Notes under the pieces: generated by a model | Seen by the model: the letters and a program-made list of their open reading frames with translations, nothing else | What the model was told of the DNA's origin: nothing | Database searches by the model: none | Program-made: the position numbers and the translations under genes | IMG/VR virus record: IMGVR_UViG_3300033074_002207 | Direction: 5' to 3' (one strand) | From: a virus | Lineage: Duplodnaviria; Heunggongvirae; Uroviricota; Caudoviricetes | Length of the DNA: 64,000 bases | In this document: one piece after another, positions 4,060-32,176 of the stretch | Numbering within the stretch: position 1 is the first letter of the stretch | How the letters are laid out: the number at the start of each line of letters is the position of its first letter

Positions 4060-5337
4060 ATGATGGATTTATACGACAAGAGCAAAGTTTACTTTACCTA
4101 TCACTCTAAGCTGCATTCGGCGCAAAACACAGATGCTTTTGCTTTCTCACAACTAATTCCGTATATTGGTAACAAAAGAAAGCTTTTGCCGTTGATTATT
4201 GACGGCTTGCGCGAGACTGGATTACAAAACGGCAAATTCTTGGATATGTTTTCTGGCAGTACAGTTGTTGCAAGAATGGCTAAAGAATTTGGTTTTCAAA
4301 CTTTTGTTAATGACTGGGAGCCATACGCATGGCATCTTAATCGCTGTTTCATCACACTCAATAAAGAGCCAGAATTTTCCATGCTTGGCGGCGCTGATAA
4401 AGTCTTTGATATTCTAAACAACATCCATCCCAAAGAAGACTGGGTAACAACTTACCTGTGTCCTGATGATGATGACAACCCAGATTTGTCCCGCGAGCGA
4501 TTGTTTTTCACAAGAGAAAACGGCATGCTTATTGATGCGATGCGGTGCCAAATTCAAGAATGGTATTCTGATGGACAGATTGATTCTGATGAGTTGTCAT
4601 ATCTTATAGCACCGCTGCTATATTCAGCAAGTTATGTATCAAACACGAGTGGTTTGTTTAATGCTTTTCATGCGGGGTTTGGCGGCGGAACTAAAACTGG
4701 GTTGAATAGAATTAAAAGTTGTATCGCTTTGCAAAAACCTATTCTTTTTGACAACAAAAAACAGAATGTGGCTTTTTGTCAAGATGCGTTAACTTTAGCT
4801 TATGATTTACGAGATGCCAATTTGGATGTTGTGTATCTTGACCCTCCCTATAATCAGCATTCATATGGCAGCAACTATCATGTATTGAATAGTATTGCTC
4901 TGTGGGATAAGCCAGAGACACCAGAATATATCTCTAGTGGGCGCAAATCGGCTATTAGGACTGACTGGCAAGATTCGCGGCGCTCAGAATACAACTCCAC
5001 CAAAACTTCTTCGATGGCTTATGATGAGTTAATAAACTCTATTCAGTCTCGCTATATGTTGGTATCGTACAGCACTGAAGGAAATATCCCGCTTTATGAT
5101 TTGTTGTCTTCAAGCGGCAGCGTTGGAAGTCTCAAATGTGTTATGGAGCCATATCAAAGATACAGGGTGTCTAAGCAGCGCCCAAGCGTTCGTCCGAGAA
5201 CTTTAGAATTTGTTTTGGTGATTGACACATCTGGCAAGCCATCTAAATCAAATGTTGATGAGGTGTTTGAAAAGATTGTTGAGTCTGAGAAAACATTGCA
5301 AACCAGAACTGAAGAATTAATGGAGATGGCGAAATGA
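4060..5337 (+). CDS. DNA adenine methyltransferase (D12 class, FokI-M-like)
   Basis: PYIGNKRKLL, DMFSGSTVVA, YLDPPYN; start placed at ATG 4060. Confidence 0.9.
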   Translation: MMDLYDKSKVYFTYHSKLHSAQNTDAFAFSQLIPYIGNKRKLLPLIIDGLRETGLQNGKFLDMFSGSTVVARMAKEFGFQTFVNDWEPYAWHLNRCFITLNKEPEFSMLGGADKVFDILNNIHPKEDWVTTYLCPDDDDNPDLSRERLFFTRENGMLIDAMRCQIQEWYSDGQIDSDELSYLIAPLLYSASYVSNTSGLFNAFHAGFGGGTKTGLNRIKSCIALQKPILFDNKKQNVAFCQDALTLAYDLRDANLDVVYLDPPYNQHSYGSNYHVLNSIALWDKPETPEYISSGRKSAIRTDWQDSRRSEYNSTKTSSMAYDELINSIQSRYMLVSYSTEGNIPLYDLLSSSGSVGSLKCVMEPYQRYRVSKQRPSVRPRTLEFVLVIDTSGKPSKSNVDEVFEKIVESEKTLQTRTEELMEMAK

Positions 5338-6893: not shown

Positions 6894-7376
6894 ATGGAAT
6901 GGGTTTATGGTGACATGATAGATGTTTGCCGTGAGCGCGATTACGATGGTATCGTGTTCACGGCAAATTCTGTTGTAAACAAAGACAGCGAACTAGTTAT
7001 GGGCGGTGGGGCGGCGCTTCGGGTTAAGAATGCCTTCCCCAAAGCAGCGCTAGTCTTAGGAAATCAAATTAAACAAGATGGTTACAACTGGGTGCAGCCA
7101 GATTATTATTTGGCTGGCTGTGTGTTTGATGCAGTGAAACCATTCTATGTATTCGCCCTTCAGGTTAAGCGAGATTTTAGGCACAAAGGTGACATTCAGC
7201 TAACGATTCAATCACTCAAAGACCTTGCCACTTGGTGTGAAGAAAATCCAGAGGTTAAACTGGTGATGAATTGTCCGTTAATAGGATTGGGTGGATATCG
7301 CTCAAGGGTTGATGAGGTAAAGGAAATTGTTAGTTCTATACTCAAAAATACAAGTATAGTGGTGACAATTTTATGA
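6894..7376 (+). CDS. Macrodomain (ADP-ribose binding/hydrolysis) protein
   Basis: TANS...VMGGGAAL..K..FP; CPLIGLGG. Confidence 0.8.
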   Translation: MEWVYGDMIDVCRERDYDGIVFTANSVVNKDSELVMGGGAALRVKNAFPKAALVLGNQIKQDGYNWVQPDYYLAGCVFDAVKPFYVFALQVKRDFRHKGDIQLTIQSLKDLATWCEENPEVKLVMNCPLIGLGGYRSRVDEVKEIVSSILKNTSIVVTIL

Positions 7377-8977: not shown

Positions 8978-9537
8978 TTGTCTGACAACACAACAACCCA
9001 GCTTTCGTCTTCATATACGTTGGCTGGAGTGAGGTTTAAGATTTTTAAAATGTCAGTCACGGCGCTATAGTCGTGTCCCATTAATAATCCGTCTGGTTTT
9101 AATTTCTTTCGCCACGATATGATGTCAAATCCCGCCGACTCATAATCATGCGCACCGTCAATATAAACATAATCTAATGAGGCGTTTTGAAAAATACCCA
9201 GAGCTTCTGCTGAAAACAATTTGTGTTTAATGATGTTGTCATACACTTCTAGCAGCTTGTCAAATTCTTTTTCTGCTTCGGCAAGCATCTCATAAGTAAC
9301 TTCGCCGTAATTAGATTCAATGACTCTTGTCCAGGGGTCTACGGCATTGATACAAGCGCTAAAATTTGCAAATACCTCTGTAGAAGCGCCTCTAAAACAA
9401 CCCACCTCACAGCCAACCATTGTGTTTTTCAAATGGTCTTGGCATAGTTGTATTAATCCTTCGGTAGAATTTACCGAAGTGTTAAAATCATGGTCTTCTG
9501 CCCAAACTCTCGTTCTTGGTTTAATCATAATGGTCAT
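8974..9537 (-). CDS. Class I SAM-dependent methyltransferase (Methyltransf_24-like)
   Basis: EVGCFRGAST, DYVYIDGAHDY, LMGHDY. Confidence 0.85.
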   Translation of the reverse strand: MTIMIKPRTRVWAEDHDFNTSVNSTEGLIQLCQDHLKNTMVGCEVGCFRGASTEVFANFSACINAVDPWTRVIESNYGEVTYEMLAEAEKEFDKLLEVYDNIIKHKLFSAEALGIFQNASLDYVYIDGAHDYESAGFDIISWRKKLKPDGLLMGHDYSAVTDILKILNLTPANVYEDESWVVVLSDN

Positions 9538-9589
9538 TTCCTATATTTTACAGTCAAAACCTGTCTTTCTGCCTTTCAAGTGTGCTATA

Positions 9590-9994
9590 ATGAAAGACGA
9601 CATGTTTACATTCTATGTGATAAAAAACCTTGACACAGGTGAATATTTGTGCCGATGTCCACAGTCAGCGAGTGATTTGGGGTTTATTTGGACATCGAAG
9701 GCGAACGCAGCAAAAGTATATGCAACAATTGGTCCTGCTCGTGCAGCATCTACTACTATTTCCAGAATTTGTTATGATAATGATATACCCAAGCCAAATT
9801 TTGTTTTAGTAGAACTTGCCACCGTAGAGCATATTATTGACGACAGTATCAGGGCGGCAACAGCAGTGTCAAAAATTAGAAACAAGAAATCTCAACAGCA
9901 AAAAATCTACACACAACAAGAGATTCAGGCATTACATCAAGAAATGGCCGCAATGGCAAGAAAAATTTCTCAACTCAGCGGAAAGCAACAATGA
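9590..9994 (+). CDS. Hypothetical protein
   Basis: Start after TGTGCTATAAT (ATG 9590 or 9602); C-terminal coiled coil. Confidence 0.65.
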   Translation: MKDDMFTFYVIKNLDTGEYLCRCPQSASDLGFIWTSKANAAKVYATIGPARAASTTISRICYDNDIPKPNFVLVELATVEHIIDDSIRAATAVSKIRNKKSQQQKIYTQQEIQALHQEMAAMARKISQLSGKQQ

Positions 9995-9996
9995 TT

Positions 9997-10022
9997 TCCT
10001 CAAAATATATGTTGTCCAGATA
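9997..10022 (+). promoter_or_regulatory. TCCTCAA-N15-GATA putative promoter
   Basis: Motif, then 7 nt, then ATG 10030. Confidence 0.7.
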
Positions 10023-10029
10023 AATAGGC

Positions 10030-10089
10030 ATGATTCGAGATATCAGCAAGGTTTTGCTAGTTGAAGGTAATATGGCATATATGTTCTAA
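10030..10089 (+). pseudogene. Orphaned 5' end of the exonuclease gene
   Basis: MIRDISKVLLVEGNMAYMF* versus MIRDITKVLCLD at 10940. Confidence 0.75.
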
Positions 10090-10107
10090 TACCATAAAAG
10101 GTGTTAG

Positions 10108-10947
10108 ATGAAAACTAAAGAAATTACCTCCGAAATACGCTCGTTTGTCTTGTCAGAATACCAAAGGGGTGTTGGCACATGTGAGATTGCGGCACAGCTT
10201 GGTGTAAAGCGATGGGTACCCTGGCGGGTTTTATCACAGGCTGGTGTAAAAATGCGCCGCAAATCCGTTTATAAGAAAAAATATAACCAACAATTTTTCG
10301 ACACATACACTCCTGAGTCGGCATATTGGGCTGGTTTTATTTTGGCTGACGGAAATATAACTAGAGATTCTAGCTTGTTACAGATATCTTTAAGCCAAGT
10401 TGACGAGTTTCATCTGCTTAAATTTTGCCAAGCGATTGAGCTGGAAAGCAAATTGACCAAAGATAATGATTGCGTCAGGATGTCGGTGAGTGGCAAGCAT
10501 ATATGCAAAAGTTTAGCTGCTAATTTTGGGGTTCATCCTCGAAAAAGTAATATATGTGTTTTTCCAGAGCAAATTCCAGAATATTTGTGGTCGCATTTTA
10601 TTCGCGGCATATTTGACGGCGATGGAAGCGTAACGCATGGCAGCTACGTTAACAAAAGCATGGAGCAGAAGCATAATATTATAATTAATTTTACAGGCTC
10701 TGTTGAGTTATTAAATTTCCTCAAAAGTTTCTTTCATGAACATATAAATATTGTGGTGAAGCGCTCTTCGATGACGGGGGTTCCACCAACACACATTGTT
10801 GGGAAAAACAAACAAACTGGACAAATAGCTTACAGCGGTATAAATGCTGTCGCAATATTAGATTGGCTTTATGCTGAGTCTGATGAGGCAACAAGACTAA
10901 ACAGGAAGTATGAAAAATTTCAACATTTAAAAGAGTATTATGATTAG
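10108..10947 (+). CDS. Free-standing LAGLIDADG homing endonuclease
   Basis: YWAGFILADGNI and HFIRGIFDGDGSV; N-terminal HTH. Confidence 0.9.
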   Translation: MKTKEITSEIRSFVLSEYQRGVGTCEIAAQLGVKRWVPWRVLSQAGVKMRRKSVYKKKYNQQFFDTYTPESAYWAGFILADGNITRDSSLLQISLSQVDEFHLLKFCQAIELESKLTKDNDCVRMSVSGKHICKSLAANFGVHPRKSNICVFPEQIPEYLWSHFIRGIFDGDGSVTHGSYVNKSMEQKHNIIINFTGSVELLNFLKSFFHEHINIVVKRSSMTGVPPTHIVGKNKQTGQIAYSGINAVAILDWLYAESDEATRLNRKYEKFQHLKEYYD

Positions 10948-11518
10948 AGACATTACAAAAGTTCTGTGCCTGGACACAGAGCACACATGTTATGAAAACG
11001 GAAATTTTCCGCATGGAGAGCAGTCAGACATCATTCAAATTGGATGGTGTTGGTTGCTGTTGCCCTCGCTAGAGATTACCAAGCCGCAGATGTTATATGT
11101 TCGCCCCACAAGGTCACGCATCAGTGATTATTGTGTTGAACTCACAGGCATCACCCACAAGCAGGTAATGTCTGCGCCACCACTTGCACACGTTTGTCAG
11201 ACGCTTATTAACAAGCATGGCACACGCGCTCGACCGTGGATGACATGGGGATATGATATTGAGGGGCTAAAGGCTGAATGCGAGGCATTTGGCGCAACGT
11301 TCCCATTTTCAGAATCATATATCAATGCTCAGGACATGGCTTCTATTTTGCTCGGACTACCGTTGCGAATGGGATTAGACGCAACACTTCGTCTAATGGA
11401 CATGTCATTTATAGGCAATCATCACCAAGCACCAGATGACGCTTATAACTTGGCACGAATTGTGCAAAAGTGTTGCACACCAACCACAGAAAGATACGAT
11501 TATAAGAGGATAGGATAA
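10940..11518 (+). CDS. DEDDh 3'-5' exonuclease (KapD/ERI-1-like)
   Basis: CLDTEHTC, IIQIG, LTGITH, HHQAPDDAYN. Confidence 0.88.
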   Translation: MIRDITKVLCLDTEHTCYENGNFPHGEQSDIIQIGWCWLLLPSLEITKPQMLYVRPTRSRISDYCVELTGITHKQVMSAPPLAHVCQTLINKHGTRARPWMTWGYDIEGLKAECEAFGATFPFSESYINAQDMASILLGLPLRMGLDATLRLMDMSFIGNHHQAPDDAYNLARIVQKCCTPTTERYDYKRIG

Positions 11519-11531
11519 GGAGAAAGAATTT

Positions 11532-12794
11532 ATGACCAAACATGTATTGAAAAACGGCTTAACAGTATTAATGACACAAATGCCCCACGTTAAATCGGTT
11601 AGCGCGGGGATTTATGTTAAAACAGGCAGTGCCTACGAACCTGACACCAAGGCTGGCATGTCGCACTTCTTGGAGCATATGCTTTTCAAGGGCACCAAGA
11701 ATCGAACAGCCAAAGAGGTTGCCGCCGCAATTGAAGGCAAGGGCGGAATGCTAAACGCATACACCGATAGGGGTGTGACAGTATACTACGCCAAGGGTAT
11801 CTATACCGAAGTTGATACTATTCTTGATGTTCTTGCTGACATGTATCAAAATTCGCTTCTTGCTCCCGAGGAAATAGAACTAGAAAAGAAAGTGGTGTTG
11901 GAAGAAATTTCACGAGAATTTGATGACCCTGACAGTTTTATTCACAGTCTGTACATTTCACAACGATGGAATGGCTCATCATGGGGACGCCCTATCCTTG
12001 GAACCCGTGAAACTGTTAGCGCACTGACATCACAAGACCTGAAAAATTATGTGACAACTCATTATACTGCCCCAAACACTGTTGTTTCGATTGCGGGTAG
12101 TTTTGATGAAAAGCATGTTTTGGAACAGGTGGAAAAGCTGTTTTCTGGACTATCGAACGCAAATGTCGCAGAACCTGTATTTGCCAACACCATAAACCGC
12201 GAATCGCTGGCTATTCAGCGAGATGTTGAACAGGCTTGTTTTTGTATCGGGTTTAGCGGAATGTCCAACACGGACGAACGACGGCATACAATGCATGTCA
12301 TTAGCACCGCGTTAGGTGGCGAAATGTATAGTCGGCTCTTTCAAGAAATACGCGAAAAAAGAGGGTTGGCATATTCTGTGGGCACCTATACAGCGTCATA
12401 TAAGCACGATGGTTTGCTGGTTGTTTATGGTGGAACCAACTATAAAAATTGGGATACTGTGCAACAGATTGTCACAGAGCAAATTGCAGACATCACCAAA
12501 AATGGCTTGACATCACAAGAGTTTGAAATGTCCAAGGACAACAACATTGGGCTTACTATGTTAAGTCAAGAGCGCCCCGCTGACATTATGGCAAATCAAG
12601 CATACGACGAGATTAATCATGGGCGCAGAATCTCAGTCGAAGAAACTGTGCAAAAAATCAAAGATATCAACAATGATATGATAATCGAAGTGGCACAGCA
12701 GATATTTCCTGGCAATGAAAGCCATGCGATTATTTATCCAAAAAGCCACAAACCCGGCTTTTTGCGTGGTATACTTGGAATGTGGAGAAAGTAA
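11532..12794 (+). CDS. M16 (pitrilysin-family) zinc peptidase
   Basis: GMSHFLEHMLFKGT (HxxEH); SRLFQEIREKRGLAYSV. Confidence 0.95.
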   Translation: MTKHVLKNGLTVLMTQMPHVKSVSAGIYVKTGSAYEPDTKAGMSHFLEHMLFKGTKNRTAKEVAAAIEGKGGMLNAYTDRGVTVYYAKGIYTEVDTILDVLADMYQNSLLAPEEIELEKKVVLEEISREFDDPDSFIHSLYISQRWNGSSWGRPILGTRETVSALTSQDLKNYVTTHYTAPNTVVSIAGSFDEKHVLEQVEKLFSGLSNANVAEPVFANTINRESLAIQRDVEQACFCIGFSGMSNTDERRHTMHVISTALGGEMYSRLFQEIREKRGLAYSVGTYTASYKHDGLLVVYGGTNYKNWDTVQQIVTEQIADITKNGLTSQEFEMSKDNNIGLTMLSQERPADIMANQAYDEINHGRRISVEETVQKIKDINNDMIIEVAQQIFPGNESHAIIYPKSHKPGFLRGILGMWRK

Positions 12795-30716: not shown

Positions 30717-31091
30717 ATGTCTCAGGCATTAGGAACACATATCATTCTCGATTTATACGGATGTAACCCGGACGTGATGTTGCACGTTCCTACAGTCCAG
30801 TCTATCATGAGGAGCGCCGCTGAAGAAGCACAGTTCACGATTGTCACGGAAGAATACCACCAATTTGAACCACACGGGGTCAGCGGCGCAACAATCATCC
30901 AAGAGAGCCATTTGTGTTTGCATTCTTGGCCTGAATATAAATTCGTCTCTATTGACATTTATTATTGTGGTGAAAACGACCTGGTGGAACAAGCAATTAG
31001 CTTTTTAATCAAGAATTTTAAACCAGAGTTTATTGAGCGAAAAGATTCACCAAGGGGTATTCCAGAAATGTATAATAAATTTCTGAAATAA
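30717..31091 (+). CDS. speD: S-adenosylmethionine decarboxylase proenzyme
   Basis: GTHIILDLYGC, HQFEPHGVSG, QESHLCLHSWPE, IDIYYCG. Confidence 0.95.
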   Translation: MSQALGTHIILDLYGCNPDVMLHVPTVQSIMRSAAEEAQFTIVTEEYHQFEPHGVSGATIIQESHLCLHSWPEYKFVSIDIYYCGENDLVEQAISFLIKNFKPEFIERKDSPRGIPEMYNKFLK

Positions 31092-31128
31092 TGCAGGAAT
31101 GTCACCTAGCTTTACATAAAGTGTTTAT

Positions 31129-32025
31129 GTGGCTAAGACAATTTTTACCCCCGAACAAGATGAAATGCTTAAACAACTGTATCCTGTCATGGGAACAGAT
31201 GTCGTTGTTTTTTTACCTTTTACTCGAAAACACATTTCCACAAGAGCTTATGGGCTGGGGTTAAGAGTATGCAAAGAATCTAAAAGTAAAAAAGCTGCAA
31301 TTTTTGCATCACGCCCTCGACCGGATTTGTGTGGTGTTGATTCAAATTTATTTACTAATATACACTCGCCAGAAATAGCATATTTATTGGGTATGATTTG
31401 GGCAGACGGTTATGTAGACAAAAAATCATTTCGAATTATGCTTTCTATTTCAGAAAATGATGCTAACCAAATCGAGTCTGTTGTTTCCCGTACAGGAAAG
31501 TGGAGCATTCGCACCTGGCAGCCTCCGGGTAAAAGGAAACCCCAAAAAAGTTTTACTATCTCCAATAAAGTGATACATCATTTTTTATCCGAAAATGATT
31601 ATCAATCTAAAAGTGTATCATCCGCGTGTAAAATTTTAAATTGCATCCCCGAACAATTGCAGCATTATTTTTGGCGCGGTTATTTTGACGGCGATGGTTG
31701 TATTAGTAATCGCTTGCGTCATGGAGGGCATTCGTCACAAATGTCTTTATCTGGCTCCTTTAATCAAGATTGGACGTTTGTTAGCAAGCTTTTTGCAACA
31801 TTAAATATTGAGATGAAAATACAAAAACAAGAAGCTAAGCATAGATATTCTCGCGTAGTGGTTTATAACATGAATGACATCAACACCTTCTTTGAATACA
31901 TATATCCCGAGAAAAAATATGATGGTATTGGGTTAGAGAGAAAATATGGTAAATGGATAGAAATGCTTCACAATAGTTCTCAATCGAGATATTCTACGAT
32001 TAAAGCATTATCTCAACTGGGCTGA
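31129..32025 (+). CDS. Free-standing LAGLIDADG homing endonuclease
   Basis: YLLGMIWADGYV and FWRGYFDGDGCI. Confidence 0.9.
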   Translation: MAKTIFTPEQDEMLKQLYPVMGTDVVVFLPFTRKHISTRAYGLGLRVCKESKSKKAAIFASRPRPDLCGVDSNLFTNIHSPEIAYLLGMIWADGYVDKKSFRIMLSISENDANQIESVVSRTGKWSIRTWQPPGKRKPQKSFTISNKVIHHFLSENDYQSKSVSSACKILNCIPEQLQHYFWRGYFDGDGCISNRLRHGGHSSQMSLSGSFNQDWTFVSKLFATLNIEMKIQKQEAKHRYSRVVVYNMNDINTFFEYIYPEKKYDGIGLERKYGKWIEMLHNSSQSRYSTIKALSQLG

Positions 32026-32176
32026 GCATAAATACGCCTCGATTGATGTGTTTTATTGTGGTGAAAACCTGCATGCACAAAAGTGTATCGACCACCTAAT
32101 CAAAGCATTTGAAGCAACACATTATGAAATTGCAACTATTGCTCGCGGTTTGAAAAACACATACGAGCGTTTCTGA
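32015..32176 (+). pseudogene. speD: Orphaned 3' half of a speD allele
   Basis: NWAEHKYASIDVFYCGENLHAQKCIDHLIKAF...ARG aligns with SWPEYKFVSIDIYYCGENDLVEQAISFLIKNF...PRG. Confidence 0.85.

Follow-up and report, generated by a model that had tools for sequence, protein, structure and literature searches.

Organization of the locus

Within the 64,000-nucleotide stretch of a Caudoviricetes genome that we analysed (IMG/VR record IMGVR_UViG_3300033074_002207; the whole stretch is hereafter called the window), a gene for a LAGLIDADG endonuclease lies between two starts of one and the same gene, which encodes a DEDDh 3'-5' exonuclease. All features of the locus are on the plus strand. It opens with the resident leaderless promoter of the exonuclease gene (9996-10029), composed of a TTCCTCAAAA box at 9996-10005, a 15-nt spacer, a TAAATA element resembling a -10 sequence at 10021-10026, and three further nucleotides before an ATG. 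This layout agrees with that of other promoters of the window, in which TTCCTCAAA occurs 13 times against 1.2 expected occurrences (an 11-fold enrichment), 12 of them on the plus strand. The promoter now stands ahead of a gene stub and the endonuclease gene.

The ATG at 10030 begins an open reading frame (ORF) of 19 codons, MIRDISKVLLVEGNMAYMF (beginning MIRDISKVLLVE), with its stop at 10087-10089. The first 35 nt of this frame (10030-10064) are the original codons 1-12 of the exonuclease gene, truncated within codon 12, which specifies a catalytic Asp; we refer to them as the stub. They are followed by an inserted cassette of 910 nt (10065-10974), whose ends are ambiguous by 2 nt (a common dinucleotide, GA). 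The cassette consists of a 43-nt leader (10065-10107) with a Shine-Dalgarno-like AAGGTG ahead of the endonuclease ATG, the intact gene of a monomeric, two-domain LAGLIDADG endonuclease of 279 amino acids (10108-10947), and a replacement 5' end (10940-10974) that overlaps the endonuclease stop and supplies new exonuclease codons 1-12. From this second start the functional exonuclease gene extends over 10940-11518 and encodes an ERI1/KapD-like protein of 192 residues with the N-terminus MIRDITKVLCLD. A preliminary description of this DNA had reported the order of promoter box, ATG 10030, 19-codon ORF, endonuclease and exonuclease start, and its coordinates proved accurate.

As was also noted there, eight of the first nine residues are identical between the two starts; 10 of the 35 shared nucleotides differ (71% identity). 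The differences had been described as mostly synonymous. This holds for codons 1-9, in which the only amino-acid change is Ser/Thr at codon 6, but not for codons 10-11 beside the junction, which specify two variable residues and encode Leu-Val in the stub and Cys-Leu in the replacement start. The endonuclease and exonuclease genes share 8 nt (ATGATTAG). Codons 2-3 of the new exonuclease start provide the TAG at which the endonuclease ends, so that Arg3 must be encoded by AGA; a CGA codon, as in the stub, would give no endonuclease stop. The insertion point itself falls in codon 12, which specifies the Asp of the invariant D-x-E motif, the first catalytic Asp of the exonuclease. Conserved active-site sequences are the usual targets of such homing elements.

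An empty site and a co-converted flank

A closely related strain, L025, is represented by a contig of 6,980 nt (depth 75) from the public run X6, an RNA library. In this contig the sequence of window positions 9306-10064 is followed by 34 nt that equal the version of 10975-11008 found in a cassette-bearing relative, L001, and then by 11009 onward, so that exactly the 910 nt of window 10065-10974 are missing. By BLAST, L025 position 5509 joins window 10064 and L025 position 5508 joins window 10973 (10064/10973-5, given the 2-nt ambiguity). The promoter and start of L025 are identical to those of the window at 115 of 115 nt, comprising the 35 nt of the stub and the 80 nt upstream, and elsewhere the two are 96.5-97.8% identical. 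In L025 this start reads without interruption into the exonuclease gene (MIRDISKVLLVD-TEHTCY…). It follows that the stub represents the start of the resident gene and that the insert measures 910 nt. Stub and preceding 80 nt reproduce exactly the promoter and start of an intact gene, so the likeness is not due to chance. The proposal that an endonuclease invaded the 5' end of the exonuclease gene and captured its promoter is thus supported by the empty site, the identical stub and the position of the endonuclease behind the resident promoter. The start that follows the endonuclease is indeed recoded, being a diverged copy that differs from the uninterrupted allele at five of the 13 nt beside the junction. 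Runs X4, X3 and X20 carry cassette-bearing pieces of the locus; cover in the runs was not used as evidence, and parts left uncovered in X6 and X20 are no evidence of absence.

The sequence downstream of the insertion carries a second trace. Over positions 36-170 of the exonuclease gene, the window is 81% identical to L025 and 91% identical to the L026 lineage, which is otherwise distant from the window. From position 171, over the next 1336 nt, it is 98% identical to L025 and 83% to L026. A co-converted flank of 133 nt (10975-11107, gene positions 36-168) is thus foreign in the window and begins at the insertion site. In L001 the same tract is identical to L025 at 134 of 135 positions, and foreign DNA ends exactly at the insertion site. 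Foreign DNA that begins at this site and reaches a variable distance downstream is as expected for the repair of a break there. Comparing the window with L001, only the tract 10975-11107 is clearly of separate origin. An endonuclease dS of 0.25 had raised the possibility that these two acquired their cassettes independently; we dropped it, as the flank upstream has diverged to the same extent (94.0% against 93.7% identity).

Occurrence among relatives

Homologues of the exonuclease, 65-82% identical, were found on long metagenomic contigs with the same neighbouring genes, a glycosyltransferase gene upstream and M16 peptidase and ABC-transporter genes downstream. The hypothesis of an invading endonuclease implied that relatives without it should carry one exonuclease start, not two, and this was the case in L025 and in four further endonuclease-free lineages (L007-10, L011, L012/13 and L015-17). 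In all endonuclease-free relatives the single start lies 30-40 nt after a TTCCTCAA box. Intact cassettes with an endonuclease of 279-280 amino acids are present in the window, L001, L026-28, L014, L018-20, L021-22 and L023-24. The element is thus present or absent at one site among close relatives, with a clean empty site in L025. Pairs of sister lineages, judged by the identities of flanking genes, differ in occupancy: L011 is free and L014 occupied (94% identity in NMT1 and 81% in M16), and L015 is free whereas its sister L003 holds a decayed copy. Such decay is seen throughout L003-L006, where endonuclease residues 157-279 are all that is left, the resident promoter and stub having been lost along with the first half of the endonuclease gene; three of these four contigs (L003-5) have a frameshift as well.

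Every endonuclease-bearing locus shows the same ATGATTAG overlap and an open exonuclease start of the form MIRDxxKxLxxD, and the replacement starts retain this family pattern across six diverged lineages. The cassette leader is likewise kept in all endonuclease-bearing lineages, as AGGT..TAT..GTAT.TG.TCTAATACCA..TTAGATG. We considered whether this leader derives from the target site and dropped the idea, the supporting reverse-complement match of 7 nt being too short to be meaningful. Compared with one another, the stubs of the window and L014 and the start of the working gene in L007 show 5-8 differences in 35-38 nt, all of them synonymous. Hence the stubs diverged while they were parts of working genes.

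The length of the stub varies, with 12-13 codons in the window, L001 and L014 and two codons in L018-24. In the latter group (L018:2906-3000, L021:2280-2370 and L023:697-787) the stub has been cut to ATGATT, or GTGATT in L021, leaving a seven-codon mini-ORF, MIFAQVL, directly after the promoter. It may be a mere deletion product, or it could be a leaderless ribosome entry site ahead of the endonuclease gene. In L014 (4053-4168) a stub of 13 codons is followed by about 35 nt that look as if part of the cassette leader had been duplicated. L014 and the window therefore differ in their left junction, which suggests a separate joining event or a later rearrangement. The endonuclease-free L011 has a single start (4960-5040) spelled almost like the replacement start of the window, with AGA, Thr6 and Cys-Leu at codons 10-11, and unlike the stub of its sister L014; this allele may be resistant, or it may have arisen through loss of the cassette.

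Further searches gave little. A DNA search of a phage collection with window 9300-12000 gave no match, a protein search of the same collection returned only three distant exonuclease matches (25-34% identity), and a scan of viral_contigs with the exonuclease found no relative. Among the neighbouring genes, that of the M16 peptidase (window 11532-12794, with counterparts in L003-L015) is 44-63% identical at the amino-acid level in most pairs, against 75-85% for the genes on either side of it, which hints at fast evolution or gene replacement.

The encoded proteins

The endonuclease ORF matches Pfam LAGLIDADG_3 with 29.7 bits (cut-off 22.5) and has PHROG matches as well. Its two LAGLIDADG helices, with the motifs FILADGN and GIFDGDGS, keep both acidic motif residues, and D81, G82, G167 and D170-G173 are invariant in 26 homologues. 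An AlphaFold model based on 26 homologues (pLDDT 89.2, pTM 0.77) predicts the pseudo-dimeric alpha-beta-beta-alpha-beta-beta-alpha fold, preceded by an N-terminal region of three helices that is helix-turn-helix-like in appearance. A search of the PDB with the endonuclease sequence gave no match; the relationship was found by fold search. The best PDB matches from Foldseek were the monomeric two-domain LAGLIDADG enzymes I-Tsp061I (E 3.7e-9), I-LtrWI, I-AniI and I-OnuI, with E values from 4e-9 to 1e-6, and the 50 PDB matches listed were LAGLIDADG enzymes or the related bI3 maturase. Ratios of non-synonymous to synonymous change (dN/dS) are 0.05-0.17 where dS is unsaturated, and 0.33 for the L018/L023 pair. 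These ratios indicate that the endonuclease is under purifying selection. Together with the predicted fold and the conserved catalytic residues, they suggest that the enzyme is functional.

The exonuclease ORF matches Pfam RNase_T with 41.7 bits (cut-off 24), and ERI1 in the PDB with an E value of 4.8e-11. Beyond the overall domain, the protein has the Asp-x-Glu of the Exo I motif and the His-x4-Asp of the Exo III motif that characterize DEDDh enzymes, and residues D12, E14, H162, D166 and D167 are invariant in 20 homologues.

Proposed expression of the interrupted gene

Because the resident promoter lies upstream of the stub and the endonuclease gene, the insertion amounts to a capture of this promoter. 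The captured leaderless promoter would start transcription at the stub ATG, and the 19-codon ORF ends 18 nt before the endonuclease start, which would be served by its own Shine-Dalgarno-like sequence. For the exonuclease, no longer leaderless, translation would begin at the ATG that shares nucleotides with the endonuclease stop and is preceded by a purine-rich stretch.

The displaced exonuclease gene is probably also transcribed from a site embedded in the endonuclease gene. This promoter-like site (10717-10749) has a TTCCTCAAAA box at 10717-10726, a 15-nt spacer and ATATAAAT at 10742-10749. The distance from the box to the exonuclease ATG is 223 nt in the window and 220-226 nt among the copies. 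The box is invariant at the nucleotide level in eight of eight copies, including a half-deleted remnant. In a codon alignment of five lineages only 19% of the conserved degenerate codons are identical, and the box ranks among the three longest stretches without any change. No other such box stands between the exonuclease start and the gene upstream of it in L003-L006. On this pattern of sequence conservation, we lean towards the view that the internal box is the cassette's own promoter for the gene it displaces. A further candidate, in which a leaderless GTG near 10759 would initiate a short peptide from the endonuclease tail, with coupling to the exonuclease start, was dropped as a general feature, because the start codon is absent there in L014, L018 and L023.

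Cassettes of the same design at other genes

L025 carries a second 5'-end cassette (L025:1392-2460) at a site that corresponds to window 6894-7020. Here a LAGLIDADG gene of 272 amino acids, whose product is 27% identical to the one studied above, sits in a 160-amino-acid ORF. A stub of 114 nt is identical to window 6894-7007; over about 125 nt the replacement start is diverged at roughly one position in three, and beyond this stretch identity with the window resumes. As the window is empty at the site in the 160-amino-acid ORF and L025 is empty at the exonuclease site, the two strains are reciprocally occupied.

The window holds a third LAGLIDADG ORF (31129-32025) after an AdoMet decarboxylase gene (30717-31091; locus 30717-32173). 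The last 53 residues of the decarboxylase recur after the endonuclease, at 32015-32173, with 40% identity (tblastx, E 4e-12). This downstream copy is identical at 48 of 52 positions to the C-terminus of P0149, an endonuclease-free allele, of which the first 57 residues are identical to the decarboxylase protein of the window. The downstream copy thus represents the native, P0149-like C-terminus, and the third cassette replaced a 3' end, as happens in fungal mitochondria.

Proposed mechanism and alternative explanations

Our data make it very probable that the 910-nt insert is a free-standing, non-splicing LAGLIDADG homing cassette that spreads at the DNA level. During mixed infection the enzyme would cut the exonuclease gene of a cassette-free phage at codon 12/13, in the Asp-x-Glu motif and around GTTGA|CAC, a position suggested by the sequence of the junctions. 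The break would then be repaired from the cassette-bearing genome, and the promoter and first 12 codons of the recipient would stay upstream as a stub. As the cassette brings its own codons 1-12, the exonuclease gene stays whole. The full target would be re-created at neither junction: the stub joins the left half-site to the leader, and the new start joins a changed left half-site to the right half-site. The recoded start may therefore be immune to cleavage. The sequence of L001 past the junction equals the empty-site allele, so any such immunity must lie in the 13 nt before the junction, where the five differences from the uninterrupted allele and the change of residues 10-11 from Leu-Val to Cys-Leu are found.

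Several observations weigh against this reading or limit it. The only empty-site allele of this particular strain is the contig from the RNA library of run X6, so that splicing retains a small probability for that contig. Shifting the junction by 2 nt places a U before the insert and a G at its end, as in group I introns. The endonucleases of the window and L014 are 80% identical at the amino-acid level, about as much as the products of neighbouring genes (75-82%), a divergence equally compatible with repeated homing and with a long history of joint vertical inheritance. Three lineages have a poor -10 element at the internal promoter (ATATCGGT and ATATTGGT). Both the proposed target and the supposed immunity of the recoded start are read from the junctions only, and, because L011 is endonuclease-free yet has nearly the replacement spelling, this spelling is not exclusive to cassettes.

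The first two of these points would be accommodated if the insert were a self-splicing intron carrying an endonuclease gene, and the joined form were the spliced exonuclease messenger RNA read from the upstream start. Removal of the insert leaves a perfect reading frame, and the exact joined form (…GTTGA|CAC…) comes from a metatranscriptome contig at depth 75, in a run that has no cover of the endonuclease gene, although what is uncovered there is not evidence of absence. We nevertheless regard splicing as very unlikely. Searches of the window against Rfam at gathering scores, and of 9900-11200 at E values up to 10, yielded no intron match, and no ribozyme core of a group I or group II intron was detected; tRNA and other Rfam families were likewise not found in the window. 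The endonuclease ORF leaves only 70 nt of the insert (43 + 27) free, and a ribozyme core would not fit into so little sequence. The insert ends in 35 nt that comprise a start codon and 11 further codons; six diverged lineages have kept them coding, for which an intron end would have no reason, and stubs of 2, 12 or 13 codons would mean different splice sites in different lineages. The joined form is known from one contig of a different strain, L025, which also spans an oppositely oriented gene and in which a second cassette of like design remains unspliced; a contig from a sister RNA run is unjoined across 10056-10299, and the empty sites of other lineages come from JGI metagenome assemblies, which we take to be DNA. 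The earlier suggestion of a non-splicing strategy is thus upheld to the extent that splicing is unnecessary and that intron-like RNA structure was not found with Rfam.

Mobility could also be a thing of the past. If an old insertion were now immobile, with the endonuclease kept for another use such as attack on competing phages or regulation, then losses and ordinary recombination would have to account for the patchy distribution. The divergence between the window and L014, the strong purifying selection and the presence of every copy at the same locus would all fit. Such an account is unlikely, since it requires several losses, each precise to the nucleotide. It also has to contend with a clean empty site in a strain that is 96-98% identical, with a sharply bounded foreign tract that starts at the insertion site in the window and is absent in L001, and with half-deleted copies of the kind expected from a cycle of invasion and decay. 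Least likely of the three is a tandem duplication of the gene's 5' end into which an unrelated gene later landed, the endonuclease being uninvolved. The duplicated 35 nt around the insert could in principle have arisen so, but the two copies share only 71% identity, against 100% between the stub and the working start of a relative. Moreover, the endonuclease is accompanied in every lineage by the replacement start, which overlaps the endonuclease stop codon, and the same architecture occurs at other genes with two other LAGLIDADG genes that are only 25-27% identical.

Comparison with known systems

By our analysis, the closest published parallel to the homing cassette is found in fungal mitochondria, where mobile endonuclease ORFs (mORFs) replace the 3' ends of genes and leave the native end as a remnant (PMC3630166). 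Cases have been described in atp6 of Allomyces macrogynus, in atp6, atp9, cox2 and nad3 of Glomus, in atp9 of Rhizopus and in cox2 of Mortierella (PMC3630166 and work cited there). In these, as in the phage locus, a LAGLIDADG (or GIY-YIG) ORF enters a protein gene without an intron, together with a diverged copy of the displaced end whose differences are mostly synonymous. The native end is retained in the phage as well (the stub matches L025 at 35 of 35 nt, and the replacement is 71% identical to the stub), in a mirrored layout, and the third cassette of the window (30717-32173) has exactly the 3'-end layout of the fungal elements. The difference is that the exonuclease cassette replaces a 5' end, and does so in the genome of a giant phage and not in an organelle. 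It would therefore work like an mORF without being a member of that set. Because a 5' end is replaced, the element must handle a promoter and a start codon, hence the capture of a leaderless promoter, the stop/start overlap and probably a promoter of its own.

Among phage elements, the free-standing endonucleases SegB, SegF, SegG and MobE of T4-like phages also home without introns (reviewed in PMC2988022). With these the cassette shares a free-standing endonuclease gene, presumed double-strand-break repair in mixed infection, co-conversion of the flank and presence or absence in close phages. Seg and Mob genes, however, are intergenic, usually cut away from their insertion site and encode GIY-YIG or HNH enzymes, whereas the present LAGLIDADG gene is placed within a coding sequence, apparently at the cut site, and the interrupted gene is repaired with a duplicate end. 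Insertions into phage ORFs without splicing are known from MobA in the T4 topoisomerase gene (39/60, with a 50-nt bypass) and from MobE in nrdA of Aeh1, both of which split the protein (bioRxiv 10.1101/2022.08.31.505936; PMC2988022; PMC3045599). The likeness extends to an endonuclease placed in an ORF without intron or intein, extra coding sequence that keeps the host function, destruction of the target, near-identical phages with an empty site and progressive decay of the endonuclease. In those systems two chains with added tails reassemble; in the cassette studied here the short first piece is abandoned and a single new start yields the complete protein, with neither bypass nor protein reassembly. 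LAGLIDADG enzymes of group I introns and inteins (I-AniI, I-OnuI, I-Tsp061I) share the fold, the two-domain monomer, a target in the coding sequence of a catalytic site and insertion at the apparent cut site. They differ in that no splicing element was detected here, and function would be restored by duplication of a gene end and not by removal of the insert. We found no published phage case of replacement of a gene start, the 5' end, in the open-access literature.

Significance

Introns or inteins are thought to be what allows homing endonucleases to persist in genes, with a few phage examples that split the protein instead. The exonuclease locus shows another solution in a phage, with population evidence, in that the gene start is replaced. 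In the literature that we searched, replacement of a gene end is described only for 3' ends in fungal mitochondria. The 5'-end version poses the extra problems of a promoter, a start codon and a leaderless gene, to which promoter capture, the stop/start overlap and a promoter box within endonuclease codons are the apparent answers. Short orphan ORFs of phage genomes that resemble the beginnings of genes can be scars of homing, and the 5' ends of genes can be swapped horizontally in short tracts. Such elements also supply ready pairs of enzyme and target for testing, in the form of empty and recoded sites, and constitute a natural model of drives that combine a nuclease with a recoded rescue.

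It is an evenly balanced question whether the giant phages of wastewater and freshwater harbour a whole family of LAGLIDADG "cut-and-rescue" cassettes that enter coding sequences at either end, each with a re-spelled gene end and, where needed, an embedded phage promoter. If they do, such cassettes would be a general third route beside introns and inteins and a natural counterpart of engineered home-and-rescue gene drives, and the starts and ends of genes would be hot spots of exchange between co-infecting phages.

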